This document shows, one piece after another, positions 3,059-34,790 of a stretch of 64,000 bases of DNA (within the stretch, counting starts at the first letter, position 1; each line of letters begins with the position of its first letter). The notes under the pieces were generated by a model. That model saw nothing but the letters and a program-made list of their open reading frames with translations, ran no database searches and was not told where the DNA came from. The DNA is from Nitrospinaceae bacterium (GTDB lineage Bacteria; Nitrospinota; Nitrospinia; Nitrospinales; Nitrospinaceae): positions 2,592,001 to 2,656,000 of the forward strand of contig OZ245011.1 of assembly GCA_965223665.1 (NCBI GenBank), read 5' to 3'. A program made the position numbers and the translations under genes.

Positions 3059-3840
3059 TACGCTCGGAGCCTCCCTTGTTGAGAGAGTATTTTTAAAATA
3101 ATTTTAAAGAAAAGGTATTTATGTAATTTTGGGAAAATACATTTAATTAACCAACGTCAAGGATGTTGAATTAATTTAATTACTACTTTTAGTTTTTATT
3201 ACTCAAACATTAAAAAAATCGGAAAACACCTTATTTTACTGTGTCACCATTAATTATAACTTTATAAGGATAATATAATTTGATAAATCTTGCTATTTAT
3301 ATAGGAATAAGTCAAACAATTTTTGAGACCAAAGTTATACCCTGAAGATTAGTTTTGGGAAAAATTGCCTATCAAGAAGGAACCCAAGGCACTCTGAAAG
3401 GGGTAACCTTATAACGAATTGATCTTATTATACTATTGTAAAGTATTAAAACAATTAGATTTAAAGACAAAACTTGGTAATAAAATAGGAGATATATTCA
3501 TTGGAGCTTGTTCGATACCAGGTTGGGGTTTATTGTTTTTAGCAATTTTCTCTTTTCTTACCAAGGTGAACCCTGGTCAAATCCCCTATTGAGAAAATTT
3601 TTACTATTGACACATAGTTTTAAAAATTAATTTCCTATTTAGCTGGCTCATCAAATAGCTGAGAATTTTTCACTACAAAAAATTGGTTGGAATATTTATT
3701 CTTACTCTAATTTAATCTTTTTAAGATAAGCGGGAAAAGTAGAATGCCATTATATTATCTAAAGAGGGTAAATTATGATTAATCAAAAAAACTTTTGGAA
3801 AAAATTGCCAAATAACAGATAAGATTTAATAGAGAAATAA

Positions 3841-7643: not shown

Positions 7644-9230
7644 TTGGCTTCAAAGCGTCTCATCAGTGGAGATATCCCCGTTATTGATCTTTTTGCCGGT
7701 CCGGGTGGACTGGGGGAAGGATTCAGTCAGTTCCGTATCCCGAATAAACAACCATTCAAAATAGCGCTCTCCATTGAGAAAGATCCAATTGCTCACAGTA
7801 CGCTTGAACTCCGTAGCTTTTTTCGTCAGTTCATCAGAAACGGAGTGCCTGAAGACTATTACCGTTTTCTGAGAGGTGAACTGACCAGAAAAGAGCTATT
7901 TGACCGATTCCCGATTGAAGCTTCTGATTCAAAAAGAGAAGCATGGCATGCCACATTGGGAGAAACACCCCAGAAGGAAATCAGTCAGCGCATAAAGGCC
8001 GCGGTTGGAGATAAAAAGCTCTGGGTTCTTACCGGTGGCCCGCCCTGCCAAGCATATTCACTGGTGGGCCGATCCCGTAAGGGCGGAATAGATTCGAAAG
8101 ATAAAAATGTCAGACTCTATATTGAATATCTTAAGATTATCAGTCAGTTTTCTCCGCCTGTTTTCATCATGGAAAATGTTAAGGGTCTCCTTTCTTCAAA
8201 ACTGGGAAACCATAAAATTTTTGATCAAATACGATCCCAGCTTGAAAACCCGGATTCCATTACAGAAGTAAGACACTCTCGGAAATCCCACCGGGCTGGG
8301 CATATTCCAACATACAGGATTTTTTCCTTGGTTCATGAACCCCGGGGAATAGATTTCTGGGGAAATCCCGTATATGAAAGCACAGATTATGTTATCAGGT
8401 GTGAAAATTTTGGAATTCCACAGGCACGACACAGAATAATATTAATGGGAATCCGTGAAGACTTGGATCGTACCCCCATTCCACTCAGGAAAAAGGATTC
8501 CTTCGTTACAGTTAAGGAAGCTCTTAGGGGTCTACCCAAGATTCGCAGTGGCCTGTCGAAATCTGAAGACAGTTCCAAGCTCTGGAAAAATCTATTGAAA
8601 AGTGCATCCGGACAATTCTGGGTCTCTCAGATAAAAAGAAAACATCCAGAAGTTTACAAGAACGTCATAAAGGTCCTTGACCAGTTATCTTCCCCACTGA
8701 AAAACCGTGGTGGTGAATTTATTCCCTGGCAGATCACTAATAGTAAAGACTTTCTCCTGAATTGGCTTGAAGACAGTCAAATTGGTGGAGTCTGCAACCA
8801 CACCTCCAGGGGACATATGGAGGAAGACCTGTATCGATATCTTTTTGCCGCCTGTTATGCCAAGGTCTTCAGAGAATCACCCAAGCTTGGCGATTTTCCC
8901 GAAATTCTTCTCCCAAAACATAACAATGTACCTAGAGCCGTGAAGGGTTCCCTATTTTCAGATCGCTTCAGAGTTCAGATCTCGAACAAACCAGCCACTA
9001 CCATCACAAGTCATATCTCAAAGGATGGTCATTATTATATACACTATGATCCTCAGCAGTGCCGCAGTCTAACAGTCAGAGAAGCAGCAAGACTCCAGAC
9101 CTTTCCTGACAATTACTTTTTTTGTGGACCCCGTACAGCACAATATACCCAAGTAGGAAATGCTGTGCCCCCCTATCTGGCACTGCAGATTGCTGAAACC
9201 GTATTTAATGTGCTTAACCAAGATGAGTAA
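7644..9230 (+). CDS. dcm: DNA (cytosine-5) methyltransferase, long form
   Basis: TTG start with GGGAGG RBS; motifs DLFAGPGG, GGPPCQ, ENVKG, QARHR, RSLTVREAARLQTFPD, GNAVP. Confidence 0.95.
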   Translation: MASKRLISGDIPVIDLFAGPGGLGEGFSQFRIPNKQPFKIALSIEKDPIAHSTLELRSFFRQFIRNGVPEDYYRFLRGELTRKELFDRFPIEASDSKREAWHATLGETPQKEISQRIKAAVGDKKLWVLTGGPPCQAYSLVGRSRKGGIDSKDKNVRLYIEYLKIISQFSPPVFIMENVKGLLSSKLGNHKIFDQIRSQLENPDSITEVRHSRKSHRAGHIPTYRIFSLVHEPRGIDFWGNPVYESTDYVIRCENFGIPQARHRIILMGIREDLDRTPIPLRKKDSFVTVKEALRGLPKIRSGLSKSEDSSKLWKNLLKSASGQFWVSQIKRKHPEVYKNVIKVLDQLSSPLKNRGGEFIPWQITNSKDFLLNWLEDSQIGGVCNHTSRGHMEEDLYRYLFAACYAKVFRESPKLGDFPEILLPKHNNVPRAVKGSLFSDRFRVQISNKPATTITSHISKDGHYYIHYDPQQCRSLTVREAARLQTFPDNYFFCGPRTAQYTQVGNAVPPYLALQIAETVFNVLNQDE

Positions 9231-9643
9231 TGGCCGATCAAATCTCACCCGAGCACAGAAGTTGGAACATGTCCCGAATCAGGGGCAAAGATACAAAACC
9301 CGAAAAGATTGTACGCTCAATACTTCATAAATCGGGTTACCGTTTCAGACTCCACCGTAAAGACCTTCCAGGAAAACCTGACATTGTTCTTCCCAAATAC
9401 AACACAATAATATTTGTCCATGGCTGTTTCTGGCACCGTCACAAGAACTGTCGTTTTGCTTATACTCCCAAATCCAGAAAGGAGTTCTGGAATGCAAAGT
9501 TCAGAGATAACAAAAGAAGAGACAAAAAGAACCAAAAAAAATTGAAAAATCTTAATTGGAGGGTAATCACAATCTGGGAATGCCAAACCCGAAATCTTGA
9601 ACTAATCAGGAAAATAATTAAAAAAAACCTAGAAGGCACCTAA
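9230..9643 (+). CDS. vsr: Very short patch repair endonuclease Vsr
   Basis: RSWNMSRIRGKDTKPE, LPGKPDIV, FVHGCFWH; TAATG coupling with dcm. Confidence 0.95.
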   Translation: MADQISPEHRSWNMSRIRGKDTKPEKIVRSILHKSGYRFRLHRKDLPGKPDIVLPKYNTIIFVHGCFWHRHKNCRFAYTPKSRKEFWNAKFRDNKRRDKKNQKKLKNLNWRVITIWECQTRNLELIRKIIKKNLEGT

Positions 9644-9726
9644 TGTATTTGGGACTTCATTTAAATCCATCACAACCAATATCACAATTATGAGTGTTCA
9701 TTCCTTGTCCGATTTTAATAGAGTTC

Positions 9727-10554
9727 TCACCAAGTTTTTTTCCAAGAGACATTAAGGTCGGAAGATACTTTGCGTACTGTTTCCTTAGGTTTAAAATCGG
9801 AAAATACTTTGTCTATGGTTTCCTTAAGATCGGTTTCAGGCAAACATTCAAAACTTATGACTGGCGCCCAGGCTCTGATTCTTTTAAAGGTTTCACGATG
9901 AACGGGTTCCATTTTCTCACGTCCTATTTTCTCTGATGTGCTCTTCCAGCCCAGCGCCAAGGCTCTTGCAACCTTAGGACTGGAAGAAATTCCCGGTCTC
10001 TCAAAAATGGCAACCTGAGCATCTTCTGTAAGCACTCTTAATAATTCAAGATCCTTATCATTACCACCATCAGCTGTCATAAGAAATCCCCTTCGCCATA
10101 ACCTCTGAAAGGTATTTCTGGTTCCTCCAAAAAAGCGGCTCTTTCTATCATCAATGTTGTCATCATGTCTTTTTTTAAGAGGAAATCTCCATCGGCAGAG
10201 ATTGGGAAGGAGAACAAGGGTAAAAAACATCCAAGTTTCATTCCTCAGGGCTTCGCCCACCGGCATACTTGAATTTTTAACAAGATAAGCTGCGCATTTT
10301 GTATCAAAGTCCGTCAACTGTTTTTTGGAGACTTCTCCCGGGTATCCATTTTGAGTTGCCAGTTTAGAAATGCCATCCTGAATTGTTTTAAGCACATCGA
10401 TATTCACTTTGGTGCCACCCGTTTCAGAATAAAAAGCAAAGTCACAGGTGAAACCTGAAATTTTCTCCAGCTGAGGTATGCTTTTATCCCTTATTTCAGC
10501 CCATATTTTTTCTGCATGAACTTTATTTATTCGAGGGAAAAGATATCGCGGCAT
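9727..10554 (-). CDS. DUF6339-like protein (ORF track start 10572)
   Basis: EALRNETWMFFTL...RWRF...RNTFQRLWRRG resembles my recollection of DUF6339; ATG at 10554 directly follows the upstream stop. Confidence 0.55.
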   Translation of the reverse strand: MPRYLFPRINKVHAEKIWAEIRDKSIPQLEKISGFTCDFAFYSETGGTKVNIDVLKTIQDGISKLATQNGYPGEVSKKQLTDFDTKCAAYLVKNSSMPVGEALRNETWMFFTLVLLPNLCRWRFPLKKRHDDNIDDRKSRFFGGTRNTFQRLWRRGFLMTADGGNDKDLELLRVLTEDAQVAIFERPGISSSPKVARALALGWKSTSEKIGREKMEPVHRETFKRIRAWAPVISFECLPETDLKETIDKVFSDFKPKETVRKVSSDLNVSWKKTW

Positions 10555-10555
10555 G

Positions 10556-11464
10556 TTATTCATTTCCCTCAAAAAAAGTTGATTGAATTATCGACTCCAT
10601 CTCAGAGGGGTTATTTTTTTTGCGGGCACGGAGATCATTAAAATTAAAATCCCCAAATGTAACGCTGAGCCATTCCTTTATCATGTAACCCAGAGTTCCA
10701 CTCTCATATTCACTAAGTTGATTGTAATCAATGTCCTCTAGGTCAATAGTCCGCAAACATACCTGCCTGACAATATCGGATACCATAAGAGAAATTAATA
10801 ATGGATCATTGCTTCTAATTTTCTCAATAAAATTCTTGTTCCCGGAATTAACATACAGCGTGACATTGCCAAGAAAAGACTGTTCAAGAGCATCCGGATC
10901 CCAGCTGAGATACCAGAGACCAGAAGATGAATCCTTAGGAAACCCCTCATTAAAGTCTATTGCAACCATTGGAAACCGGCCAAGCGTTCCTTCAAGGGGG
11001 ATCTGAAATAAATCCTCCCAGAGCCTGCTTCCCTTATGTTTGGCAACAAAAGCCTTTTTGGGTTTCAAAGTTGAATTCAGAAAAATTATCGTCTCCAATA
11101 CAAGCTTGGATGCCAGACGGGAGCTATCCAGTTCTATCTGAATCGTTTCACTCCACAACCCTTTTGCAGGCAACTGGAATAATCTTACCGGATGCTTGTA
11201 GCTGTTACCTTCGGCGCCACTTATAGGAATAACGGCCAGAATGAGGTTCTCTGCTGAATACTCATGACCTGTTTCTCTAAGAACCCGGTTGATATCTATA
11301 TTAAATTCTCTTTCCAAGGTTAGATTCAGATTATAGTCCCAACCGGGTATTCCCTCCTTCACTTTTAAAGGGCTGCCATCAGCCTGTTTCAAAACCCATG
11401 GTTTACAAAGAACTGAATCTTGATCAGACACTGTTTGGTAGGGAAAAGCTATTTCTTCTCTCAC
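10556..11464 (-). CDS. Uncharacterised protein of the Z1 operon
   Basis: 302-aa ORF, GTGA overlap with the upstream gene; no motif recognised. Confidence 0.75.
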   Translation of the reverse strand: MREEIAFPYQTVSDQDSVLCKPWVLKQADGSPLKVKEGIPGWDYNLNLTLEREFNIDINRVLRETGHEYSAENLILAVIPISGAEGNSYKHPVRLFQLPAKGLWSETIQIELDSSRLASKLVLETIIFLNSTLKPKKAFVAKHKGSRLWEDLFQIPLEGTLGRFPMVAIDFNEGFPKDSSSGLWYLSWDPDALEQSFLGNVTLYVNSGNKNFIEKIRSNDPLLISLMVSDIVRQVCLRTIDLEDIDYNQLSEYESGTLGYMIKEWLSVTFGDFNFNDLRARKKNNPSEMESIIQSTFFEGNE

Positions 11465-13323
11465 TTGGAAACCTCCTCAAGAAAGGCCTTAAGTGATACT
11501 GCAACATATCCTGGAATGGAGACTAGTACGGATAACATCTCCTCACCCGTAGTCTCTATTAGAAGCAACTCCGTATTTCCAATTTCCCTATCACTGGAAT
11601 CACGCCATTCGAGAACTTCAGGCTTCTTCCCTCCAGGCAATTCAGAAATGGTTCCCCCACCATCAATAACCACTTCGGGTTTAACCCTAATAATTATTTT
11701 CTTACCTTTTGGCCCCTTCAACCTGATATCGAATCTGGCACATGGCATACCTTTTTTCACTGTATGGCATTTAAATTTAGGCTTTTCCAATCTGAACGGC
11801 TTTTGCCTTCCACCTCTAGATCCAGTTCTTTCCCTCCCCCGGGTCACTCCTCCCAGTCTGCTCCCTGCAAGACCTGAAATCATGCTTCCTACCGCATCTG
11901 CAACACTTCCAATGGATTCACCGTTTTTATCCCCCCCAATCTTTGGTTCTGGAGAATGGAAGGCAATCATTGCTTCCCTGATTCTCTTGAGAGCAACCTT
12001 GACAAAGGTTTTTTTTCTGCTTTTCGCAGGAAGATAATCTGGTATCCAGTCATCATGAGCAGGGGGTTCCGCTTCTGCAAATGCCCTTTCAACTTGGTGG
12101 TCTGAGTCAACAATAAAAACACCTGCCCATTCGACATCGTCAATACCCATGGATTCTCCCTCAAGGTATTTTAGAACAAGTTCTGCAGGTCGCATCAGAG
12201 CCACATGCTGGCTTTTGGAAGGAATAATATTCTCACTAGACTGCAATGCAGGATTTCTCAGGGATCTGAGATTTTTTACAGTTGAAAGTTTTCCAAGTAT
12301 TTTTTTGGGACTTTTACATTCAATTTTTAGGTTGGTGCTACTGTCAGCTTTAAGGTTGCGCATCGCCTCCGAGAAGAGATCAATCGGGGAACAGTCTTCG
12401 GGTTTTGGCAAAGAGCACTCTTCTCTCTCTATCTCAAGAGAAAATTTCATGGAAGCCGGACAGGAGTCATATTCAATCATTTTGGGCCAGAAATTCCAGA
12501 GAAGTATTTCGGCCAGCCTAGCCTTCATTTCCTTCCTTGAGTTTTCATCAATATCCGGGGCAAGTATCATAATGGAGGTACCGAATTCTTCCTCCCTCCT
12601 ATCAGGAAAACCGAGCGCCGAGGCCAAACCAGCCGCATCATCGGAAGTAACCGGTTCAACAACCTCTCCACCATTTCGAACTCCCCACCAGTGCCTTCCG
12701 GTAAATCTTTTCCCGCCATCATCACCTATAGAATCATATCTGTGACCAATTTTGCATGCCATCAGTCTTCGTACGACTTCATTCCTGCATTTTGCCAAGG
12801 TATCAACAATGATCGTATGACATCGACTAAAGGAATAAAGACAGGATTTGCCATATCCATAAGTTCCTCCACCTTGAAAGGTATCTCTTGGCGTTCCTAT
12901 ATTCCTCAGAAAATCCACAAAATCTGGAGCCTCGCCCTTTTCCGGAATTTCATCTGGATGGGTAGGTCCACCCAGACCACAGGTACCAAAATCACAAATC
13001 TCAAAAACACTGAAATTCTCTCCTTCAGCCAGCAAATCCTGAATTCTTCGGTATTCTTCACCATCAGGTTCGTCAGGGAGATCAGGAAATATGTTCTCAG
13101 CCAAAATGTTCTTTTCCTGGGGCAAAAGGGTTCTGAGTCGAATACGGTATTCCGGTATCTTCCCCTCCTCTCTTGCATCCCATGAATTCTGAACTGTTTC
13201 ACGAATTACAGTCTGGAGCTGGTCAAGATTAGGAGCTCCCAAAAGTTTGGATACCCCATCCGCAGAAATATTCCCGTACCTTGAATAAGGTTCGGAGTCT
13301 CTGACCAAAGTTGTTAATATCAT
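11461..13323 (-). CDS. GHKL (MORC/MutL/HSP90-like) ATPase domain protein
   Basis: RETVQNSWDA (ExxxNxxD), DFGTCGL, GGTYGYGK, GTSIMI; ATGA overlap with the upstream gene. Confidence 0.8.
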   Translation of the reverse strand: MILTTLVRDSEPYSRYGNISADGVSKLLGAPNLDQLQTVIRETVQNSWDAREEGKIPEYRIRLRTLLPQEKNILAENIFPDLPDEPDGEEYRRIQDLLAEGENFSVFEICDFGTCGLGGPTHPDEIPEKGEAPDFVDFLRNIGTPRDTFQGGGTYGYGKSCLYSFSRCHTIIVDTLAKCRNEVVRRLMACKIGHRYDSIGDDGGKRFTGRHWWGVRNGGEVVEPVTSDDAAGLASALGFPDRREEEFGTSIMILAPDIDENSRKEMKARLAEILLWNFWPKMIEYDSCPASMKFSLEIEREECSLPKPEDCSPIDLFSEAMRNLKADSSTNLKIECKSPKKILGKLSTVKNLRSLRNPALQSSENIIPSKSQHVALMRPAELVLKYLEGESMGIDDVEWAGVFIVDSDHQVERAFAEAEPPAHDDWIPDYLPAKSRKKTFVKVALKRIREAMIAFHSPEPKIGGDKNGESIGSVADAVGSMISGLAGSRLGGVTRGRERTGSRGGRQKPFRLEKPKFKCHTVKKGMPCARFDIRLKGPKGKKIIIRVKPEVVIDGGGTISELPGGKKPEVLEWRDSSDREIGNTELLLIETTGEEMLSVLVSIPGYVAVSLKAFLEEVSK

Positions 13324-14324
13324 TTTACATATTCCTTGAAAACTTCCTGAATCGATTCTTCAACAGCAAATTCTCTAGCAACAGAAAGGTCAAGCATATA
13401 CCGGATATGAGAAATTCCTTCCTTTGGATTCCCCTCTCGAAATGCGTTTATAGTCAGCTTAGGAAAGGAATCTGAAATCTGGTAGGTCATAATTTGATAA
13501 AGGTTAAATCTATACTTTTTCCAGATCTCCTTGTCCTCCTTCAGATATCCCCCCATGCCAATTAATTCTTCAAATCTTTCAGGACGGCCGGCTTTTTCCA
13601 GCAGCTCTTCCGCGATGGAGGGAACATCCAGATTGCCCACTGGGTTTGACTCAAAAATATGATGAACAAGATAAAGACTACCTCCGTTCGGAGGTTCAAG
13701 CTGATCCAGAGAGGTTATTTCTATTACCGGTTTCTGCGTACGTACCGATGCCTTGGATTCCAAAGCTGTTTGCCCAGACGTGAAGTCATGTCTTCCCCCT
13801 TCCGGTCCCAACCAAGTCTTCCATGCGTCTGCCCTGTACCCCATAAGTTGACGCAGAAGCATCAGCTCTCCGAGAAGACCTGTAACCTTTTCCCGCGTTA
13901 TTTCCAATCTGGATATCTTCAGCAAATTGCGGAATTCCTTTAGGCTCTCCTCCACCGCTTTTAAGGGTATTTCCCTTTCGTTCACTCTTCGCAAAATGTC
14001 GGAAACAACTTCTCCAAAGACCGCTTCTAAGTTGTTCTCAAGACATACCAGATCCAGGAATCTTGTATTCTTCCCGCCGACCAGATAACTTTTATCTTGG
14101 ATATCAAGAGATTTTCCTCCAAGCTCTTTATTTATTCTATCCCTTGGATCGATTGGAACGAGGAGGCGCGCTTCTCCTGATCCACCAAGAGCCAGACGGA
14201 GGGGACCAAATCTGGTTTTCGCTTCCAGCGGACTGGTTGCAAAACCAACTGTGGTATCGGACACCCCAGTTTCTGTTCTGAGGTGAGTCCACCTTAGAAC
14301 CGGATCAATTTTACTGTTCTCCAT
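13320..14324 (-). CDS. PD-(D/E)XK nuclease-family protein (DUF4420-like)
   Basis: GLLGELMLL...WLGPEGGRHDF...ALESKAS...IEITSLDQL; usual partner of Z1 proteins. Confidence 0.8.
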   Translation of the reverse strand: MENSKIDPVLRWTHLRTETGVSDTTVGFATSPLEAKTRFGPLRLALGGSGEARLLVPIDPRDRINKELGGKSLDIQDKSYLVGGKNTRFLDLVCLENNLEAVFGEVVSDILRRVNEREIPLKAVEESLKEFRNLLKISRLEITREKVTGLLGELMLLRQLMGYRADAWKTWLGPEGGRHDFTSGQTALESKASVRTQKPVIEITSLDQLEPPNGGSLYLVHHIFESNPVGNLDVPSIAEELLEKAGRPERFEELIGMGGYLKEDKEIWKKYRFNLYQIMTYQISDSFPKLTINAFREGNPKEGISHIRYMLDLSVAREFAVEESIQEVFKEYVK

Positions 14325-16926
14325 TTATATCCTCAGGAATATCTGGTTCCTCATAATCCTGTTCCGGAAGAGGAACCTGAACATAGATTTGTGTATCATC
14401 GGTTGCCTTGGGAAATACAAAGCCTAAACCAAGAACATCCGTCATGGCATTAAGAGGTTCGCGGTTCTTTGATGACACAGGTGTTGATTCAGAGTTTATC
14501 GGATAAAAAATCAACAAAGGCTTTTTCCCAATCTTATTTTCCCTTTCATTTCTCAATTCGGCCCAACCCTTTTCGGAAACTTTAATGTTATCGTCAACAT
14601 CGATAAAAACATCAGCTTTGGACATGAGAGCTTTGATGTCAGCATCGTTTTCCAGTCCCCCGTCCTTTAACCGGGACCGGACAATTGTTCTTACTTTTCC
14701 TAAAGATCCTAAATTCTCTTGACTCTGAGCACCGGAAGACGGCTGAAGAACTCCTAAATTCCAGAATTTAAGATCACCAGCTGTTTGGCGGTTCTGGTCT
14801 TCGATATAATTTATAAGTGATACTTTATTCAATGCATTATGGGTCTCGTGTACTTCGTATGATTCAATAAAATTCAGAATCAAGCCAACTGGAACATTCA
14901 GAAATACAGGACCTCTTCCAAAGTCGGAGGAATTTATTCCTTTTGACTTTACAGAATTGATCAATTCAGAACCAGCCTTCCAGTTTTTATCCAGCCATCC
15001 CCCATCCTTCTCTTTGAATCGAAAAGTCTGAACATGAGAATCAGAATAAGAAACAGAGACGGCCTGAGCTGCCATCATTTTAGTCCTAGCCGTAATGGCC
15101 AGCCCCGGAAGCTGCCGGATCCTGACAGCAAATTGCATTGGAGTGAGTTTATCCCTAGCATAAATCTCTATATCCTGTCGGATTTCTGCTTCAACTGTGG
15201 CCAGATCATGAAATGCATTTCTCATATCTCTGGTCATCCAGATTCTTGGAAGATCTTCAAATTTGTTTCGGTATCCGAACCACCGCCCCATCTGCATTAT
15301 CGAATCGTACTGTGTGGATGTCCTCATGAAAAAACTTACAATCAGACCCTCAATTGTCAGTCCTCTGGCAAGAACATTACCCCCTACGACAATATAACGC
15401 CTTGTCCTGCTGCTGAAATCAAGCCTTTCTTCGCTTTCACTGTTTTCAACCACCACTTCAATCTGACCCACTGTTTCAGGCACATGATTCCATAGATCAT
15501 CAAATTCGACCGTCCTGTTCCCAAAACTTTCTGCAGGTACGCAATTCCTTTCCTCATCCCATAATTGCTTTAATTCTTTAAAAATCTTTTGATCGTTTCC
15601 AATGAGTTTATTTTGAACCCATTCTAGAAACTCTTCAATGCGTTGCTGTGCACTGAAATGAGGTTCCTTATAAATCGTCGTATGTATCAGCATTGACGAA
15701 TGGCAGTTTTCATCTCCTCTAACCTTTCGCACCGCCGTGGCCAAGATGAAATATAATAAGGATTTCCGGAGAGTGCTGGTAATTTCGAACGAAAAACTAT
15801 CTCTGTCTTTTTTCTTCTGGGGCCTTAATAATGGTGATTCCTCGTCAGGAATGAGGCGGATCATGTCAAGACCCTCCTCTTCAGGATGAACTTCGTCCCC
15901 CTCAAGAATATCTCTTCCAAACAGGCTTTCCGCGCCAAAATATTCCTCAGGTTTTTCCAGGGAATAGATAAAATCTTTCGGATAAAGATCATCAGGGTGT
16001 TCTGGGTTTGCAAGAACCGGGTTAATGAGAATATTTGCAAAAGGAGTTGCTGTATACCCTATATAGGCAACTCTTGGCAGAAGCTTCAGCAAGGTTCGTA
16101 CACTCTCATTTATGGCACTCATTTCTTCAGCGAATTTCGCACTGTTGACACTTGCCTGGTCACATTCATCATCAATTACCATGAAGGGGCAACTTTTCAA
16201 TATGGCAGGAGGAGTACTTTTTAAAACACCTATCAGCCTTGAAAGGATATGTTTATTCTTTTTAATAACAGCGATATTTCTCTGATCAGGGCTGAATGAT
16301 GGAAAGCTTGATAACCTGAGATTAAAGTCTGTTCCGATATTTGTCCATTTCTGCCACTTGGCCGGATTCCTTTTTACAAGATCGTTCTCAAATCTTTCCT
16401 GAGTCTGATTTCTCAGTGCATCAGTAAGGCCTGATAGCACAATGAAAAACCTGAAACTGGCATCTGCAGCTTTTGCCATAACAGCTGTCATATTTGCAGT
16501 CTTTCCACTTTGAACATATCCAACAACCAGACCTTTTGTCTTGAATTCGTTCAAACCGGGATTATCCAGATGCTGGATAATACTTGTTGAGGATCTGTTG
16601 ATTTTCCTAACTGTAAAATCACGCCATTCTTTGTCCTCCAAAAGATATTTTTTCAGAGCCGGCCAGAAAATGTCTGAATCCTTTGGACCAAAGTACCATT
16701 CCTTTCTGTCCTCTAGGATCGCAAATCCACCTTCACTGATATATTCAACAGGAATATCCCTTAATTCCTGGTAAGCCTTCTCCATGTATTCTTTATTTTC
16801 ATTATAAAAATCGAAATCCTTTGCCTGGTTTACACACTCTTGGTAGGCCTTATCAAGGGTATAGCCGTTTGCTATGACCTTTTCGGATATTATTCCTTTG
16901 AATTTTTTAACTTTGGATCCATCCAT
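14311..16926 (-). CDS. Z1-domain SF2 helicase-like protein
   Basis: GYVQSGKT, IDDECD, YTATP, SMLIHT, LARGLTIEGL, QMGRWFGYR. Confidence 0.9.
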   Translation of the reverse strand: MDGSKVKKFKGIISEKVIANGYTLDKAYQECVNQAKDFDFYNENKEYMEKAYQELRDIPVEYISEGGFAILEDRKEWYFGPKDSDIFWPALKKYLLEDKEWRDFTVRKINRSSTSIIQHLDNPGLNEFKTKGLVVGYVQSGKTANMTAVMAKAADASFRFFIVLSGLTDALRNQTQERFENDLVKRNPAKWQKWTNIGTDFNLRLSSFPSFSPDQRNIAVIKKNKHILSRLIGVLKSTPPAILKSCPFMVIDDECDQASVNSAKFAEEMSAINESVRTLLKLLPRVAYIGYTATPFANILINPVLANPEHPDDLYPKDFIYSLEKPEEYFGAESLFGRDILEGDEVHPEEEGLDMIRLIPDEESPLLRPQKKKDRDSFSFEITSTLRKSLLYFILATAVRKVRGDENCHSSMLIHTTIYKEPHFSAQQRIEEFLEWVQNKLIGNDQKIFKELKQLWDEERNCVPAESFGNRTVEFDDLWNHVPETVGQIEVVVENSESEERLDFSSRTRRYIVVGGNVLARGLTIEGLIVSFFMRTSTQYDSIMQMGRWFGYRNKFEDLPRIWMTRDMRNAFHDLATVEAEIRQDIEIYARDKLTPMQFAVRIRQLPGLAITARTKMMAAQAVSVSYSDSHVQTFRFKEKDGGWLDKNWKAGSELINSVKSKGINSSDFGRGPVFLNVPVGLILNFIESYEVHETHNALNKVSLINYIEDQNRQTAGDLKFWNLGVLQPSSGAQSQENLGSLGKVRTIVRSRLKDGGLENDADIKALMSKADVFIDVDDNIKVSEKGWAELRNERENKIGKKPLLIFYPINSESTPVSSKNREPLNAMTDVLGLGFVFPKATDDTQIYVQVPLPEQDYEEPDIPEDINGEQ

Positions 16927-16975
16927 TTGTTCTGTTTTTCCTGAAAATCAGTATTTCGCTGGCAAGAAATAATTA

Positions 16976-18184
16976 TCAAGATTCAATTTTCACTTTAATT
17001 GACTCAACCCATTTGTCCAAGCGATTTCCTTTATTATTCCCACCAAGTTCATTAGAAATTAATATTTTCGCGATGTCACCTCCAGATATTAATAAAATTG
17101 GATGTCTATCCTCATGGATTTCTTTCTGAACCTGCTCATTAAAATAAGATGTAGTTAAGAAGATACCTAAATCTCTATGCTTTAATCGAGATATCAACCT
17201 CGACATCGGCTTTACCCCTATACCGGCTTTCCATTTCTTAACTTCTCCGATCACCTCCAGAAAAATTTCAGTTCCGGGTAACCCTAATTTAAAGAACCCT
17301 ACTATGTCCCTTCCACGGTCTTTAGAGCGAGGTGTTGTATCTAAATTCACAAAGTTATTGTTCAACATTTGCAGAATTTCTTTACAGGCAACTTCAAATT
17401 CATAGGGGGTTAAAAACGACAATGACTTCAAGACCTTTTTTTCTTGTTCTGTTTGAGGAAGTTGTTCGTTTTTTGTGCGTGGCAAAAATGTATTCTGGCA
17501 CTGGATAGTTTTATAGCTTCCCTTCTTGACCCAGTTTTTCCATGCTTTGGGACAATGAACCGAATAAGTGGGCAGAACTCCGGAAACCAAATCATCAAGC
17601 CAAGGCCAAGGAACAATTTCTTCGGCTAAAATACTGAAAACAGCTTTGTAGTTTTGAAATCTCTTTTTCTTAGCAACTCTCCAAACGGCTGTTAAATCTT
17701 CCAAACTTGAAAAACCTGTACCCCCTGGAGCAGCTAAGCCCAAAAATTTCATGCTGCTTAACTTCTTCTCTTTTAAATTTTCAAAACAGAGAAAAGGAGG
17801 AATATTTTTCTTTTTGCCTTCATGCATATCGTTGTAAACTGCTGCTAAAAGCTTATTTCCCCCTATATGGGTTTTGTGAATAGGATTACCAGGCTCTCTG
17901 TTATCACCCCAATACGTAAATATTCCTGTTGACAAATCAATTGAATCGGGCCATTCGTTTTCTTTAAAGTTTGTAATAAGCAATACAAAAGCTGCGTTCT
18001 GGATTCCAGTTGGTCCCTTAATTTTACTTTTGAAGCGAAACCCCCCTACATTTTGAATTCCCTTATTATCATCAAAAAACCTGAACATTTTGTTGAACTG
18101 GTCTTTTGGGTTTTTCCAATTATTTCTATCGTTTCTGAACTTGGCATCCAAAAACAGCGGCGGTCTATCAAATTTAGAGAGCAT
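16976..18184 (-). CDS. AspBHI/MspJI-family modified-cytosine-dependent restriction endonuclease (SRA-like + Mrr catalytic domain)
   Basis: GIQNVGGFR, EWPDSID, FTYWGDNREPG, GGNKLL; catalytic D-x20-E-V-K; SRLISRLKHRDLGIFLTTSYF. Confidence 0.85.
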   Translation of the reverse strand: MLSKFDRPPLFLDAKFRNDRNNWKNPKDQFNKMFRFFDDNKGIQNVGGFRFKSKIKGPTGIQNAAFVLLITNFKENEWPDSIDLSTGIFTYWGDNREPGNPIHKTHIGGNKLLAAVYNDMHEGKKKNIPPFLCFENLKEKKLSSMKFLGLAAPGGTGFSSLEDLTAVWRVAKKKRFQNYKAVFSILAEEIVPWPWLDDLVSGVLPTYSVHCPKAWKNWVKKGSYKTIQCQNTFLPRTKNEQLPQTEQEKKVLKSLSFLTPYEFEVACKEILQMLNNNFVNLDTTPRSKDRGRDIVGFFKLGLPGTEIFLEVIGEVKKWKAGIGVKPMSRLISRLKHRDLGIFLTTSYFNEQVQKEIHEDRHPILLISGGDIAKILISNELGGNNKGNRLDKWVESIKVKIES

Positions 18185-18348
18185 GTCTGTTTCTCATAAT
18201 TGTCTTCAAAATTCGCAACATAGGTTTTCAGATTTAGCGAACCTAACAAATATTGACATTTTCGGCAAGTTTAAATAAAGTCGAAGCACCTAACTAAGCG
18301 TAGCGGAATTCTTACCATAAAAGGACTATCCTTAAAATCTTTCTTATT

Positions 18349-18756
18349 TTGCAGGTAAACTTTACAAATATTCTCCACCAAACTTGCGTGGTTGTTGTCT
18401 CTAGTTTGAATCCATATATAAACAAAATTAATTTAAATAATTCAAACATTAGAGGTTTAAAATTACCGGCTGCCTACCTTCAAAATATCAACACGCAAGA
18501 AGTAAACCTTGAAGAAGCCGATCTAGAAAGGGCTGACTTAAGTAAAGCTAACTTGAAAGGAACTAATCTGAGTAACGCCGAACTGCTAGGGGCTGACCTT
18601 AGAGGAGCAAAGAATTTAACCTATCTACAACTAACAAAGGCCAAAATATATAAAAACACACAACTCCCCGATTATATCGATCCAAACCAATTGACCTTTG
18701 AGGATGAAAAGAAAGAACCCGAGGAAAACAAAAAACAAGAACCGAAGCCCTTTTAA
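18349..18756 (+). pseudogene. Pentapeptide-repeat protein C-terminal part, probably truncated
   Basis: ADLER-ADLSK-ANLKG-TNLSN-AELLG-ADLRG then typical AKNLT...TQLPDY tail; TTG start with no clear RBS. Confidence 0.5.
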
Positions 18757-18841
18757 ACCATAAACCGAAGTGATTGATCTTTAATTGTGTAAGCCAAAGC
18801 GATTTAATACTCAAAATTTTTTTAATCCCTTCCCAATTTTC

Positions 18842-19837
18842 TCACCTGATAATAAATTTCAAAGCCTTACCTGGAGGTTTGGGATAATGATAAATTCCCT
18901 TTTCACGATAGCTTCTGCTTTGAACCACATTTTTGAACTCGGAATAGAACTCATTTTTAGTCATTTGAAAAGTTCCCTCAGGACAAATTATTCTAAAACT
19001 TTCCTCGGCATTAAGAGATTCTATAACTTTTGCCAAAAAGCTGAGGCGGCTAAACTCATAAACCTTCAAAGATTTTTCTTTATTAGAAGTTTTATTTTTT
19101 GTTTTCACCTTGGATGAAGTCTTTATAAAGTCGAAAGATTTATTGTTAATGGTTCCGTTATTGCACAGTTGAAATATCTTCTGATAATTTTTTATGTGTC
19201 CATCCCCTTCCAAGCGTGCATTAGGCTGGTAAACCCAATTCGATTTTGATAATAATTCAGAAGAAAAAAATTGTGAAATTTCATTCCAAACGGTTTTACC
19301 AATTACTACAATTCGTTCAGGTTTTGACTTTTCAATAACATTTTTAACATAGCCATTCCATGAACAACAAAGCGCTTGTTTTACTTTTATAGGTCTAGGT
19401 TTTGAACCGCCAGGAATGTAAAGACCACAAATACTGGCATCCACTAACCAAATACCCCTTTCTTTCATTTGTTGAAGTATTTTAAGTTTATTATTAAAAT
19501 CCTTTATGAACTCAAAATCTTGATGAGATTCGATCCAATTTAGCGTGCTATAAAATATCCTCCAAAACTGACGAGTTTCTCTGTAATTTATACAATAAAC
19601 AAAACGCACAAAGTTTGAAGGATAATTGGGTAGAATTGAATCTAATTTATTTTTTCTTCGCGAATAATCTTCTGAAGTTGTATATACATGACTCTCAGCT
19701 AATAAAAGGGTTTTAACGACTTTTGGTTTCCAATACTGCCTATATTCTTCAACGGTTTTAATAACCTCTAAAGGTTCCTTGTAATCAGGCCCCAATATTT
19801 CCATAATTTTTATATAGCAATTCTCCAAATCACTCAT
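18842..19837 (-). CDS. Uracil-DNA-glycosylase-fold-like protein with extra C-terminal domain
   Basis: YWKPKVVKTLLLAESH, GIWLVDAS, PERIVVIGKTV, YQP resemble the UDG superfamily layout; Lys-rich linker then about 70-aa extra domain. Confidence 0.55.
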   Translation of the reverse strand: MSDLENCYIKIMEILGPDYKEPLEVIKTVEEYRQYWKPKVVKTLLLAESHVYTTSEDYSRRKNKLDSILPNYPSNFVRFVYCINYRETRQFWRIFYSTLNWIESHQDFEFIKDFNNKLKILQQMKERGIWLVDASICGLYIPGGSKPRPIKVKQALCCSWNGYVKNVIEKSKPERIVVIGKTVWNEISQFFSSELLSKSNWVYQPNARLEGDGHIKNYQKIFQLCNNGTINNKSFDFIKTSSKVKTKNKTSNKEKSLKVYEFSRLSFLAKVIESLNAEESFRIICPEGTFQMTKNEFYSEFKNVVQSRSYREKGIYHYPKPPGKALKFIIR

Positions 19838-20170
19838 AAATATTAAAAATCTAAAAATAAAAATGGTTAGTTATAAAATCCAATGATTAAATTATCTCTA
19901 ATTCTTATACCATTTTATTGTTTAAGAGTTTAGAGGAAGAAATTGGCAGGATTAGCAAGATTAGCAGTCTAACATTTAAAGTTTTGTTATTTGGAATTGT
20001 GAAGGGAGAAAAAATCAAATTCTAGCAGGCAAATAAATTCCCACCACTCCCATTGGTTGGTTTCTTGACAAGCTTGAGGAAAATTGACTAACTTTTAATT
20101 CTCTTGCCTATTAGACGCCTATTAATAAAAATAGGGACTTCAGGAAAACCTTATAACTTATTGTTTTTAT

Positions 20171-20217
20171 TGATGAGCCGTCAAGAAATCGAACCCTCAA
20201 CCTACTGATTAAGAGTC
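20171..20217 (-). pseudogene. Degenerate 3' half of tRNA-Lys(CTT), att-like relic
   Basis: Reverse complement GACTCTTAATCAGTAGGTTGAGGGTTCGATTTCTTGACGGCTCATCA: anticodon loop CT-CTT-AA, GGTTCGA T-loop, damaged CCA; no D-arm or 5' half upstream. Confidence 0.75.
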
Positions 20218-20329: not shown

Positions 20330-20406
<77 letters not shown>

Positions 20407-20551: not shown

Positions 20552-21589
20552 TTATCTTTGAAACCTTTGCCCTGAAGGATGGTTGGATCCATGAATAAGG
20601 CTGTGGCAATTCAAGCAAGATTTTCCGCCAATATAAGAACTGCGGTTTCTTAATTGCTGCCCTTCATAAAGATCACTAACATGAAAAACATCCATATGAC
20701 ATTGTTGACAAAGATAAGGAACTTTTCCTTTTAAAAGCGGACGAAAATTTGATCCGTGAGGGTCATGACAGGTTGCACAGTTTTCCAAGGCTGGGGGATG
20801 TTGCCATAAAAACGGACCTCTCTTTTCCTGATGGCATATGAAACAGGTTTCGTTAATGGTGGATCGTTTCAACAGACTTGGACCAAAGCCTCCGTGAGGA
20901 TTATGGCAGGAACCACAATCCTGTTTGCCTTCTTTTAAGGGCATATGAGATGTTCGGAACATTTTTGCTCTTACATTTCTGTGACAAGAAAAGCAGCTTC
21001 GCTTTGGATCTTCCGTAATTAACAATTTTCGTTTTCCTCTTTTATTCATCACATAATGACAATTGTCACAACTGACCTCCATCATTTGATGAGAACTTCC
21101 TTTCCAAGACATCAATTTTGAGTTTTCGTGACATTGTAAACAGATTGCATTTTTTTTTATGGGCTCTATTGATGAAAAAGAAACTACAAATTTTGCTCCT
21201 GTTTTTTTTGTGACAGAAGGCAATCGTTTTTTAATAGAAGCTATTTCGTTTAAATGTTTACTCATCGGACCATGACAGGTTTCACAAATGGTAGCTAAAT
21301 TTTTCCCATATTTTCTAACCAGCCATTTGGCGTGCTTGGTTCGTCCAAACGCCTTAATATAATCTTTGTGACATAACAAACATTCAGTCTGGTCATTTGA
21401 ATCGCTTTTTTGAGGAATAGGAGCAACCCCTTTGAGGTTGGGATTAATTTTTTCCCAATTTATTGTTTTTTCGGCATGAAGCGGTGATGAAATCGTAACA
21501 TTTAGGGCAACTAATATAAAAAAAGTATGCGTAAAAATTTTCAAATTAATTTCCTTAAAGTAAGGTAGGAGAAAAAAGTTTTTACCCAA
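20552..21589 (-). CDS. mtrA: Decaheme c-type cytochrome, DmsE/MtrA/PioA family
   Basis: Ten CxxCH motifs; KRGPFLWQHPP, CHDPHGS and C-terminal IHGSNHPSGQRFQR; signal peptide. Confidence 0.9.
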   Translation of the reverse strand: MGKNFFLLPYFKEINLKIFTHTFFILVALNVTISSPLHAEKTINWEKINPNLKGVAPIPQKSDSNDQTECLLCHKDYIKAFGRTKHAKWLVRKYGKNLATICETCHGPMSKHLNEIASIKKRLPSVTKKTGAKFVVSFSSIEPIKKNAICLQCHENSKLMSWKGSSHQMMEVSCDNCHYVMNKRGKRKLLITEDPKRSCFSCHRNVRAKMFRTSHMPLKEGKQDCGSCHNPHGGFGPSLLKRSTINETCFICHQEKRGPFLWQHPPALENCATCHDPHGSNFRPLLKGKVPYLCQQCHMDVFHVSDLYEGQQLRNRSSYIGGKSCLNCHSLIHGSNHPSGQRFQR

Positions 21590-21604
21590 AGTTTATTTTA
21601 AGTA

Positions 21605-22024
21605 TTAATTTTTTACTTTTATTAATACTTTATCCATTATTGGCGGATTATAAGGAACATGGTTTCCATATGAAAAAAGTGCAATTATTACGTGATTTCC
21701 AGGTTCCATTTTTAATTTTACACAGGTTTGTGCTTTAGATAAATGAATGGCCTCCTTACGCTTTAAAGGTTTACTTAAATCTGCAGGCAAGGAACTAAAT
21801 AATATATGATGATGGCCAAATCCTTCTCTTGTTCCATTATCTGCTGGTTCAAGAATTAATCCTTTCACCCCCATACAAAGTTTAAAAGGGTTAGTCACTT
21901 CTGCCCCACTTTCAGGCAGAGTGATAATGACTTGCCTTTCCCCAGCCCGTCCTAGACCTAAAAAAAGAAAGAAATAAAGTGGCCATATAAAATAATTTAT
22001 TTTCAAAAAAAATTTAAAAGACAT
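21605..22024 (-). CDS. DUF4399-like exported protein
   Basis: GAEVTNPFKLCMGVKG...GHHHIL...IHLSKAQT...PGNH...NHVP. Confidence 0.65.
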   Translation of the reverse strand: MSFKFFLKINYFIWPLYFFLFLGLGRAGERQVIITLPESGAEVTNPFKLCMGVKGLILEPADNGTREGFGHHHILFSSLPADLSKPLKRKEAIHLSKAQTCVKLKMEPGNHVIIALFSYGNHVPYNPPIMDKVLIKVKN

Positions 22025-22046
22025 TTCATCAATTTTAAATCAAAAA

Positions 22047-24032
22047 TTAAGTATACTTTTTTGAATTTACAAAACCATTAATAATCTCAAGAAAATTAGC
22101 AATTTCTATAGGCTTAGTGATATAAGCTTCAAAACCGGCGCTCATGGCTTTTTTTATATCGCTTTCCATAGCATCGGCACTAATGGCAATGACTGGTATG
22201 TGTTTAGTCTTCTCAATTGATCTTAATATCTTTAATGCTTCAATTCCATCTAGTTCCGGAAGGTTAATGTCCATTAAAATCAAATCAGGTTGATGAGTTT
22301 TGGCCAATTCAATTCCTAATTTTGCCTGAGGAGCAGAAAGCAAGTTTATTGATTCGTGAACTGATAAAATATCTTCAACCAAACTTAAATTGAGGGGATT
22401 ATCCTCAACATATAAAATTTGAAAATGGTCTGCAGAAGTAAAATGTTCTTTTTCCTCTTTCTTAAAATCGGGTTCCTTATCAAGTAAAAAATCACCTTTC
22501 ACAAGATTCAGTTCAATGAAAAACGTGGTACCTTTATCCTGATCACTTTGAAAGAATATTTCACCTTCCATTAAGTTCACTAATCTTCTTGAGATCGCTA
22601 GACCAATTCCCGTCCCATCAATCTCAGTATTTTCCCAATCCAACCTCTCAAAAGGTTGAAAAATTCTTGACTGCTGCTCAGGAGAAATTCCTATTCCAGT
22701 ATCCTCCATTTTAATACAAACCTTATTGGCACCCTTTTTTTCATAAGAAATTCTCACCAATCCATTTTCAGTATTGTATTTTATCGCATTTGTAATCAAA
22801 TTAAGTAATACTTGGCGGAGCCTCAGCTTATCGGCAAGAATAATGACGGGTGCATTTCCTTTACAATTATCAATAATCCTAACGGAATGCTCTTGGGCCA
22901 TAGGCTGGAGAAGTCCAATTAATTCATCTTTTAAATCAATAAAATTTACCTGCTCTAATAGCAAACCAATTTTTCCTGATTCAATTGAAGACAAATCTAA
23001 TATTTCGTTAATTAAAGCTAATAGATGATTCCCAGCAATTCGAATTTGTTTTAAGTTTTGCTCAAAATTGGCGATTTTATTCTTTTGAACTTGCATTTCC
23101 ATTAATTGACTAAAACCCAAAATTGCATTCATGGGGGTTCTCAGTTCGTGACTCATTCTGGATAAAAATTCACTTTTTGCCTGGTTCGCTTTTACAGCTT
23201 CCTCTTTCGCATATTCTAAATCCTGAGTTCTTTCTTTAACACGATTTTCTAGTTCTAAATTTAGATTAGTCATTGCCAAATTTTGTTTTTGTATTTGTGT
23301 AAGCATTTGGTTATAGCGATCGATCAAAACTCCTAATTCATCTTCACTTTGCTTTTGTGCCCGGAGCCTATAATCTCGTTTTAAAGCAACATGATTTGAG
23401 ACATCTGCCAAGTGTCTTATAGGTCTGGAAATATGATTGGAAAGAAAAATGGCAAGAAAAATTCCAATTAATAAAACCACAGATGCAAAAACAATGGATT
23501 CAGTTTGGTTCAACAAAATTTCACGATTTAACGACTCTAATGATAACCCTATAATCACCTTTCCTTTATGAATAGATTCTTGTTGAATTTGATCAAATGC
23601 TTCAATGTCCTGTGACAAAAAAAGTACCTCATCAATTAAAAAGGAACCTGTTTTTTGTAATAATATTTTTTGATCCCATTTACTTTCTTTTTTGGGGTCC
23701 AGGGTGGCAACAACCTCACTTTTTGAATCGTATATAGAAAGAAAAACCAATCGTTCATCCTGTTTCAACCAGTTGATGGTGTTTCTAATATATTCAAAAT
23801 CAAAATTCTTGAATCCAAATGCTGTAGTTTCGGAAACCACTTTTGCCATATTTTTAATTTCACTTTGGGCTGACTTTAATGCAAAGTTTTTATTCTCATT
23901 AACGGAGAACATTATGATTACAACTGAAACCACTGAAAGCACCAGCACAAAGCTTACTAGAATTTTTGTACGAATTGGGAGTTTTGAAAAAATGTTCTTC
24001 ATTTGAAAATTCAAAGCTTTATTAATCTCCAA
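22047..24032 (-). CDS. Membrane hybrid sensor histidine kinase (periplasmic sensor, HAMP, HisKA, HATPase, REC)
   Basis: Two TM segments, [45 protein letters not shown]...LMDINLP; alternative ATG at 24002. Confidence 0.93.
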
Positions 24033-34690: not shown

Positions 34691-34790
34691 ACAAAATAAC
34701 TTCCCTATCCCTCTCGCAGGAATCTTATTGAATTCCTTAATTTTTAAATGTATAAACGAAACTTATGTCAATCCCTCGGGATGGGAGATT

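Follow-up and report, generated by a model that had tools for sequence, protein, structure and literature searches.

The DNA analysed here, referred to throughout as the window, is a stretch of 64,000 nucleotides (nt) from a Nitrospinaceae bacterium (assembly GCA_965223665.1, contig OZ245011.1, positions 2,592,001 to 2,656,000 of the forward strand), and it contains a cassette in which a five-gene operon faces the genes for a C-5 cytosine DNA methyltransferase (dcm) and the mismatch endonuclease Vsr. The cassette is probably an ATP-driven system for the restriction of unmethylated DNA, that is, a type of restriction-modification (RM) system built on 5-methylcytosine (m5C). Among its relatives the five genes co-evolve tightly, whereas the methylase-Vsr pair reshuffles against them. 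The seven genes are the following.

14311-16926, minus strand: gene 1, a DEAD-Z1 superfamily-2 helicase-like motor of 871 amino acids (Pfam Z1, 1.4e-68)
13320-14324, minus strand: gene 2, a DUF4420 PD-(D/E)XK nuclease of 334 amino acids (Pfam DUF4420, 2.6e-43)
11461-13323, minus strand: gene 3, a divergent GHKL (paraMORC-type) ATPase of 620 amino acids, assigned from its motifs and predicted fold
10556-11464, minus strand: gene 4, an open reading frame (ORF) for a 302-amino-acid protein of no known family
9727-10554, minus strand: gene 5, a DUF6339 protein of 275 amino acids counted from the ATG at 10554 (Pfam DUF6339, 7.1e-9)
7644-9230, plus strand: dcm, a C-5 cytosine DNA methyltransferase of 528 amino acids counted from a TTG (Pfam DNA_methylase, 2.9e-47)
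9230-9643, plus strand: vsr, a very-short-patch T:G mismatch endonuclease (Pfam Vsr, 2.2e-30)

All five minus-strand ORFs were confirmed on reading the window, and together they span 9727-16926. The junctions, read from the sequence, are a 14-nt overlap between the Z1 and DUF4420 genes, an ATGA overlap between DUF4420 and GHKL, a GTGA overlap between GHKL and the gene for the 302-amino-acid protein, and an abutting TAAcATG between the latter and the DUF6339 gene, for which an alternative open TTG start at 10572 would give a product of 281 amino acids (9727-10572). On the other strand dcm and vsr overlap at TAATG, the true start of dcm possibly lying a few codons inside the TTG call, and the vsr stop at 9643 and the DUF6339 stop at 9727 converge across a gap of 84 nt. 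An earlier note on this DNA, made from the sequence alone, had described a five-gene coupled unit convergent with dcm-vsr, and its coordinates, overlaps and orientation are all as claimed. A scan for promoters and terminators gave counts that did not rise above those of shuffled sequence (21 sites where the shuffles averaged 24.7, and 10 where they averaged 12.7).

Relatives were gathered by a GHKL profile scan of 185,579 species genomes, which yielded 482 encoding loci, and the best 80 of these, termed the related loci, were scored for gene presence by tblastn with the window proteins. Z1, DUF4420 and the 302-amino-acid protein are each found in 78 of the 80 and DUF6339 in 77, with the five-gene order the same in 77-78. 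The loci span Pseudomonadota, Acidobacteriota, Cyanobacteriota, Actinomycetes, Planctomycetota, Nitrospinota and others. With the same five genes standing in the same order across the related loci, a chance arrangement is unlikely, and the proposal that they form one conserved unit is borne out. A few loci depart from the pattern: DUF4420 is missing between Z1 and GHKL in L075, L082 and L084, the last two being Rhizobium and Agrobacterium plasmids, and in L059 the stretch of about 2.4 kb upstream of DUF4420 (1-2458) holds no Z1 by tblastn, so that this locus may be a disrupted copy.

The methylase of the window matches TIGR00675 dcm at 6.1e-40 and the PADLOC model DrmMII at 4.4e-94, and its motifs I, IV (PPCQ), VI (ENV), VIII, IX and X are all present together with a long variable region at about 260-478; the adjacent Vsr matches TIGR00632 at 6e-44. 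A census of methylases in the 80 related loci, made by tblastn with the window-type dcm and four further methylase queries, called a complete C-5 methylase gene in 71, the window-type dcm being matched in 66 and Vsr in 65. The nine loci that lack a complete methylase (L008, L014, L031, L035, L036, L039, L040, L059 and L079) all lie on contigs cut at most about 3.3 kb from one end of the block, and one of them, L014, has a partial dcm at its contig end. A C-5 methylase hence adjoins the block in every one of the 71 loci that are not cut nearby, and the link between the five genes and a methylase-Vsr pair, as the note had proposed, is a systematic one. The methylase belongs to the subfamily of the window in 63 of the 71 (64 of 72 when the window is counted). 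Where Vsr is missing, a HhH-GPD glycosylase can adjoin the methylase (L053:16468-17136; L083:2879-3514), and this is likely to be an alternative T:G mismatch repair enzyme that replaces Vsr.

Co-evolution was followed in 51 loci in which all seven genes are complete and the methylase is of the window type, using Spearman correlation (rho) of pairwise identities over 1275 pairs; as the sequences share history, the rho values describe a pattern and are not a proof. Among Z1, DUF4420, GHKL and the 302-amino-acid protein rho is 0.79-0.89, and DUF6339 correlates with each of these four at 0.52-0.59. The methylase and Vsr correlate with each other at 0.62, a value reached by none of 500 permutations. 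For the methylase against any module protein rho is only 0.10-0.19, which 5 to 51 of the 500 permutations reach. The existence of two evolutionary units, the module and the methylase-Vsr pair, agrees with the variable placement of the methylase and with a swap seen between L024 and L055, where all five module proteins are 70-84% identical, none of them diverging out of line, and the methylases are of unrelated subfamilies. This reshuffling is a new result of the present analysis. It also lends no support to the idea, contained in the earlier note, that DUF6339 or the 302-amino-acid protein is the specificity subunit: with rho values of 0.10 and 0.19 neither tracks the methylase, and both were carried through the L024/L055 swap in step with the rest. 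No specificity subunit of the module could be tracked by covariation with the methylase. The seat of specificity may be the methylase, a target that the methylases share, or the reading of methylation state.

The Z1 protein carries a Walker A motif (GYVQSGKT at 136-143), a Walker B motif (DDECD at 251-255) and the sequence QMGRWFGYR at 545-553, and it matches the PADLOC model of MzaC at 8e-80. Its conserved H415 and H423 have a spacing of 8, the same as the H/H motif of H.CglI. In DUF4420 the residues E153, D180 and E189-x-K191 are at least 95% conserved in 79 sequences and intact in the window; the PADLOC model of MzaD matches this protein at 1.3e-10. PDB sequence searches with the single Z1 and DUF4420 sequences found nothing.

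The 620-amino-acid product of the third gene matches no Pfam or NCBIfam family, and PADLOC gives PDC-M33A at 2.2e-11 for its N-terminus only. Pfam, even at E<=5, returned a single weak HATPase_c match among 20 homologues (1 of 20, at 0.018). Nevertheless the GHKL residues E42, N46, D49, D111, G116, G119 and G152-K159 are invariant and G151 is nearly so, all of these motif residues being conserved in at least 95% of 80 sequences. The AlphaFold2 (AF2) model has a mean predicted local distance difference test (pLDDT) score of 80.5, and Foldseek against the PDB places it with Topo VI-B (1.2e-9), TRAP1/Hsp90 and GyrB among 226 matches at E<=1e-3, the alignments to Topo VI-B, TRAP1 and GyrB running over some 480-770 columns through the GHKL domains and the transducer. 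On this model the protein is a GHKL ATPase fold followed by a transducer-like middle domain and a C-terminal beta domain. The GHKL identity suggested beforehand for this protein is upheld by the conserved motifs and the predicted fold together, and the fold is a second new result. A further motif, E419-P-P-A-H423-D-D-W, is conserved as well, with E419xxxH423 in at least 95% of the 80 sequences. At least 2522 homologues exist in the protein collection, mostly unnamed or labelled "hypothetical" or "ATP-binding".

The two small proteins that close the operon are kept together, the coupling of their genes being a 4-nt overlap in most of 75 loci. For the 302-amino-acid protein no match was found in Pfam, NCBIfam, PADLOC or PDB sequences, and the ESM Atlas gave only unnamed clusters for it and nothing for DUF6339. 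Profile searches of the GHKL, 302-amino-acid and DUF6339 alignments against PDB sequences likewise gave nothing meaningful. The AF2 model of the 302-amino-acid protein (pLDDT 89.6) consists of an N-terminal beta-sandwich and a C-terminal helical bundle, for which the Foldseek matches are weak and of a generic beta-sandwich kind (best 5.7e-4, TM 0.21-0.26 on the query) and point to no enzyme. DUF6339 contains an invariant arginine-rich block, GGxRNxFQRLWxRG, and its family numbers 1444 representatives at E<=1e-3 among 1.84 billion, most of them about 250 amino acids long. When 15 longer members were scanned, six had an extra C-terminal Pfam domain (Sigma54_DBD, Mrr_N, Ada_Zn_binding, DUF4268, ADP_ribosyl_GH and DUF3320), a seventh (P0147) gave only a weak, sub-threshold DUF7706 match, and the other eight had DUF6339 alone. 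Some of the long fusions may be gene-calling run-ons, and these C-terminal domains offer a weak hint that DUF6339 might work on DNA.

Complex prediction brings the two proteins together. The pair scores 0.87, 0.87 and 0.88 against 0.00 for the best control, with partner pLDDT of at least 82 and contacts that agree by at least 70% between runs; of 157 solved complexes 116 attain the score mark, as do 2 of 215 mismatched pairs, which makes the mark a rough guide here as own alignments were used. On the side of the 302-amino-acid protein the predicted interface takes in the conserved P8, D43, G83-T84-G85, L117 and S118, and on the other side part of the conserved DUF6339 block. Stretches of this interface are residues 83-90 and 115-118 of the 302-amino-acid protein and residues 99-103 and 192-193 of DUF6339. 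The 302-amino-acid protein and DUF6339 are thus predicted to bind each other, and this pairing too is new.

The GHKL gene and its two small neighbours, a trio that may be written GHKL-X-DUF6339, also occur apart from the motor and the nuclease. In the Cyanobium genome bin L050 two diverged trios surround one C-5 methylase (14190-19989); the second trio lies on the opposite strand, is co-oriented with the methylase and is made up of a 673-amino-acid GHKL paralogue (family hidden Markov model (HMM), 9.8e-18), a 345-amino-acid protein and a DUF6339 protein (Pfam, 2.4e-17). On the haloarchaeal plasmid L083 a GHKL protein of 629 amino acids, a 356-amino-acid protein and DUF6339 follow proteins of 257 and 508 amino acids of no known identity, and a C-5 methylase and a HhH-GPD glycosylase stand about 4.4 kb upstream of this set. 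The Halorussus plasmid L086 (74-11513) has a single dcm between two diverged trios, and a further haloarchaeal plasmid, L085, shows the GHKL match again together with the two downstream genes, but no methylase in its poor annotation. Across these trios the family HMMs score 5e-37 to 3e-17 for GHKL and 4e-9 to 1e-4 for DUF6339; those of Z1 and DUF4420 found neither protein among the trio neighbours at E<=10. The middle gene was equated with the 302-amino-acid protein by position and size only, the family HMM of the latter missing it in the haloarchaeal and second Cyanobium trios at E<=10.

The occurrence of the trio beside C-5 methylases in loci without Z1 or DUF4420 is a new result of this analysis. 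Though the cases are few, it suggests two sub-modules, GHKL-X-DUF6339 linked to the methylase and Z1-DUF4420 serving as an exchangeable motor and nuclease, the partners of the trio being either Z1 and DUF4420 or the unrelated 257- and 508-amino-acid proteins. As the methylase-Vsr pair is swapped under a near-unchanged module, the trio may read methylation state and not a fixed sequence. A bolder proposal, possible though rather doubtful, is that the trio, which keeps beside C-5 methylases and T:G-mismatch repair genes in bacteria and haloarchaea alike, would be the heart of the system in place of Z1 and DUF4420, either reading the cytosine-methylation state or acting via the methylase, and in this way licensing whichever effector is attached.

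A working scheme for the cassette can be drawn from these parts, although the individual subunit roles are rather doubtful, and much more so than the overall reading. The Dcm-type methylase would mark the DNA of the host, and Vsr would repair the T:G mismatches that arise from deamination of m5C, limiting C-to-T mutation. The five-gene operon, convergent to methylase-Vsr, would provide the restriction side. Here the DEAD-Z1 motor would burn ATP to move along double-stranded DNA (dsDNA), as the H subunit of CglI does, and the DUF4420 PD-(D/E)XK nuclease would cut. The GHKL ATPase may dimerise on ATP and clamp or loop the DNA, thereby licensing cleavage as MutL licenses MutH, UvrD and Vsr, whilst the heterodimer of the 302-amino-acid protein and DUF6339 could, as a guess, link the machine, by way of the GHKL ATPase, either to DNA or to the state of its methylation. 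It is inferred that the proteins form a complex with such roles, that unmethylated DNA is restricted and that the outcome is an anti-phage effect.

Several observations weigh against methylation-dependent restriction. Methylase and Vsr form a separate transcription unit that may lie on either side of the block in either orientation, and, as noted above, the methylase barely correlates with the module. In eight of the 71 loci the methylase is of another subfamily, seven of the eight forming one family, and in five of the eight (L009, L011, L015, L024 and L053) an EcoRII-C nuclease stands beside it, which means that a complete EcoRII-type system abuts the five-gene block. These second-subfamily methylases are fused to a helix-turn-helix (HTH) or DNA_meth_N domain in L009, L011, L015 and L024, with no extra domain in L053, and in the other-subfamily loci the methylase may belong to the neighbouring system. 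A recognisable sequence-reading domain was found in none of the subunits, and tblastn matched the GHKL gene to no phage record. A preprint of October 2026 (10.64898/2026.09.30.754977) still speaks, in the part that treats them, of paraMORC defence as 'proposed', and the literature on the domain families, Mza/AIPR and paraMORC yielded no experimental study of this system.

Some of these points would suit a methylation-independent defence akin to Mza, in which the five genes on their own would detect infection and respond by cutting DNA or killing the cell, and dcm-vsr would be a separate co-resident element. Z1 and DUF4420 are indeed the closest relatives of MzaC and MzaD, there are two evolutionary units (rho 0.10-0.19 as opposed to 0.52-0.89), the position and orientation of the methylase vary, the methylase has an EcoRII-C partner of its own in the five loci, and the Rhizobium and Agrobacterium plasmid copies have no annotated methylase within 8 kb in an incomplete gene table. 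Yet a C-5 methylase stands beside the block in 71 of 71 uncut loci and beside three of the four distant trio loci (L050, L083 and L086), with none annotated on the poorly annotated L085, and the sharing of islands would hardly account on its own for a linkage that stays so constant between phyla and between domains. Moreover, neither AIPR nor MzaB is present. This alternative is therefore considered unlikely.

The comparison with Mza itself can be drawn further. The order of Z1 then DUF4420 and the presence of a GHKL-superfamily ATPase are shared, but the MzaC and MzaD scores fall far under the NCBIfam equivalog cut-offs (346.6 against 1500 bits and 72.8 against 420 bits), the GHKL protein is placed after the nuclease and matches no MzaB model in PADLOC or NCBIfam, and the window has a methylase and Vsr but neither AIPR nor MzaA. 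The AIPR domain is absent from all window ORFs scanned (ORFs of at least 100-120 amino acids). The cassette is accordingly distinct from Mza, as had been proposed. In PADLOC-DB v2.0.0 no named system is fully matched; only MzaC, MzaD, Helicase_II and a partial PDC-M33A appear, and there is nothing for the 302-amino-acid protein or DUF6339.

Restriction of unmethylated DNA, with methylation as the self-mark, stays the best reading of the cassette, but it is not of a kind that had gone unseen, a point on which the earlier note was undecided. An unnamed 'Type I' candidate defence system with a core of Z1, DUF4420 and a cytosine methylase was predicted by Miller, Stern and Burstein (2022; PMC9523054), whose passages on it describe it as 'strongly associated with DNA repair endonucleases' and as unknown to PADLOC and DefenseFinder, report a MORC-like protein for which HHpred was not significant, and present no experiment. 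The sizes given there compare with those of the window as follows, in amino acids: Z1 925 and 871, MORC-like protein 704 and 620, DUF4420 298 and 334, DUF6339 231 and 275, and the protein without a domain 310 and 302. Both sets are associated with a cytosine methylase and a DNA repair endonuclease. By the account in those passages the cassette of the window appears to be a member of this 'Type I' candidate system, the core domains and three further genes agreeing by domain names and sizes and not by sequences, which also counts as a reservation. The core differs, Z1, DUF4420 and the methylase being the core of the published system, whereas here GHKL-X-DUF6339 appears to be a unit of its own.

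The general class is older still. Iyer, Abhiman and Aravind (2008; PMC2292703) described, in their treatment of these operons, RM operons with a superfamily II (SFII) helicase bearing the motif DThhQXuRhFG and a restriction endonuclease (RE)-fold protein with an E-D-ExK motif, to which are added cytosine methylases, Vsr, and MORC or, displacing it, the GHKL families paraMORC2-5. The cassette fits this class, and the window has the corresponding features in D541...QMGRWFG of Z1, in E153/D180/E189-x-K191 of DUF4420, and in the methylase and Vsr. Its GHKL protein shows the paraMORC-type arrangement of ATP-binding motifs followed by an S5/transducer-like domain, and E419xxxH423 fits the ExxxH given for paraMORC2 late in S5, a comparison set against the text description only. 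The passages in question do not mention the two small proteins.

The parallel with MutL, UvrD and MutH and the interaction of MutL with Vsr were also remarked upon in that paper (PMC2292703), and they lend some colour to a role outside defence, namely a strand-directed pathway of m5C repair or maintenance in which GHKL, Z1 and the nuclease are analogues of MutL, UvrD and MutH working with Vsr. The parts list mirrors the three repair proteins, and Vsr or a HhH-GPD glycosylase is nearly always present. Such a pathway is nonetheless very improbable in view of the sporadic distribution (482 relatives in 185,579 species genomes), the GC-deviant island and the plasmid copies, the recombinases, transposases and restriction or defence genes that adjoin 10 of 15 sampled loci, and the normal UvrD encoded in the same genome (45905-48082).

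A DEAD-Z1 motor is already familiar from the ATP-dependent restriction enzymes CglI and NgoAVII, systems that use an m5C methylase. The window shares with them the Walker A, Walker B (DDExD), H/H and VI motifs of the DEAD-Z1 protein, as well as a nuclease on a separate subunit. In CglI the DEAD-Z1 H subunit is an ATP-driven motor that translocates on dsDNA and is required for cleavage, and the nuclease is a PLD enzyme with a B3 DNA-reading domain in a complex of composition R2H2, as far as the sections consulted of Toliusis et al. (2018; PMC5861437) describe it. The operon of the window has a PD-(D/E)XK nuclease and three further subunits instead, and contains no PLD or B3 domain. Another relative is the island CDBH8_0988-0994 of Corynebacterium diphtheriae BH8, listed by Puigbo et al. 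(2017; PMC5379612) in the relevant portion of their paper with a Z1 helicase, DUF4420, three proteins left unclassified, a Dcm-like methylase fused to an HTH and a nuclease resembling EcoRII. This variant corresponds to L009 with its HTH-fused methylase; in L011 the methylase is fused to a different HTH family, and L053 has EcoRII-C without an HTH match. In contrast, the methylase of the window is of the long subfamily, and an EcoRII-like gene is lacking there. Two other candidates were set aside: a two-component system (TCS)-like arrangement of HEF_HK and Response_reg_2 (PMC8011034, from its description of the domains), neither of which is matched by the window proteins, and the paraMORC3/Shedu protein VcSduA (PMC12137116, as outlined there), which was ruled out as there is no DUF4263 fusion.

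The cassette is horizontally acquired and lies in a mobile or island context. Its GC content is 0.40-0.44 over 7-18 kb of the window as against mostly 0.28-0.35 in the flanks, and a tRNA-Arg gene (TCT) is found at 20330-20406, about 2 kb past the island. A search for island-end repeats gave a single weak direct repeat of 25 nt (84% identity, 3405-3429 and 20147-20171), whose imperfect copies, 16.7 kb apart, bracket the island region; no integrase was found. Flanks were surveyed through 103 ORFs at 15 loci, every third of the 45 loci with full flanks, and mobile-element or defence genes lay within 6 kb in 10 of the 15, counting the transposases of L007. They comprised serine and tyrosine recombinases, transposases, primases, a reverse transcriptase, NgoMIV, GmrSD_N, an IrrE-like peptidase and phage genes, and the remaining five loci had housekeeping neighbours only.

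The GHKL gene was also matched by tblastn on six plasmid records. Three copies are full-length, one of these plasmids being conjugative, and the genes of these three copies are annotated as "Z1 domain-containing", "PD-(D/E)XK motif protein", "hypothetical", "hypothetical" and "DUF6339 family protein". On the plasmids L082 and L084 the block comes after a Gabija-like pair (AAA_15/OLD-TOPRIM and a UvrD-like helicase) and before a SNF2 helicase with an EcoRII-N domain gene, surroundings that constitute a dense defence island.

Such mobility raises the prospect of a mainly selfish addiction module, by which cells that lose the cassette would suffer post-segregational killing and defence would be a side effect. 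The mobile context, the plasmid carriage and the varied chromosomal insertion sites are in keeping with it, and post-segregational killing is established for many type II RM systems. Sequence data do not separate addiction from defence, however, and the two roles are not mutually exclusive; as the main role, addiction is improbable.

Immediately beyond the operon, 49 nt upstream of Z1 and on the same strand, lies a gene at 16976-18184 (minus strand) for an AspBHI-like methyl-directed nuclease (RE_AspBHI_N, 1.2e-52, with Mrr_cat; PADLOC mREase_II, 6.3e-103), which by its domains appears to be a restriction enzyme of the m5C-dependent type. With such an enzyme beside a Dcm-type methylase, the methylase sites of the host must escape it. 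Its strand and proximity, together with a second case in L073, could mean that it belongs to the operon and that a six-gene system reads both methylated and unmethylated DNA. The pairing occurs in only 1 of the 80 related loci, however, and promoter-like sites separate the AspBHI-like gene from Z1, though their number is not above shuffled controls; a six-gene system is the remotest of the readings considered.

A pentapeptide-repeat protein adjoins the island (18349-18756, plus strand; Pentapeptide, 1.1e-27), and another adjoins the cassette in L009 (15359-16837; Pentapeptide_3, 4.5e-16), these being two cases only. Pentapeptide-repeat proteins can mimic DNA. The rest of the window is ordinary chromosome, with an MtrB/PioB porin, multihaem cytochromes, UvrD, a ClpB-like gene and haem biosynthesis. 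Within it a group of genes at 20552-26337 (minus strand) suggests an extracellular electron-transfer locus of the host chromosome, as an outer-membrane porin of the MtrB/PioB type (1e-102) is accompanied there by a multihaem cytochrome (Paired_CXXCH_1, 1.6e-31) and a hybrid histidine kinase. At 34728-36371 (plus strand) there is a 548-amino-acid protein consisting almost entirely of ankyrin repeats (Ank_2, 8.6e-133), which is unusual in bacteria.

The family represented by this cassette is widespread, with at least 2522 GHKL homologues, 482 loci in species genomes and 1444 DUF6339 representatives, and three of its five proteins are without an NCBIfam model or a PADLOC model of a named system, two of the three being without a Pfam family as well. 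The reshuffling of the methylase against the module raises a testable question, namely where target specificity is located. The copy in the window is compact, at about 9.3 kb (7644-16926), and the catalytic motifs of its methylase, Z1, DUF4420 and GHKL proteins appear intact. The MORC chromatin ATPases of eukaryotes respond to DNA methylation and presumably descend from prokaryotic MORC and paraMORC proteins. The coupling of a GHKL ATPase to a methylation mark could be worked out in a tractable bacterial system of this kind and, if the proposal made for the GHKL-X-DUF6339 trio is true, the trio would serve prokaryotic immunity by reading an epigenetic mark in the manner of MutL/MORC.

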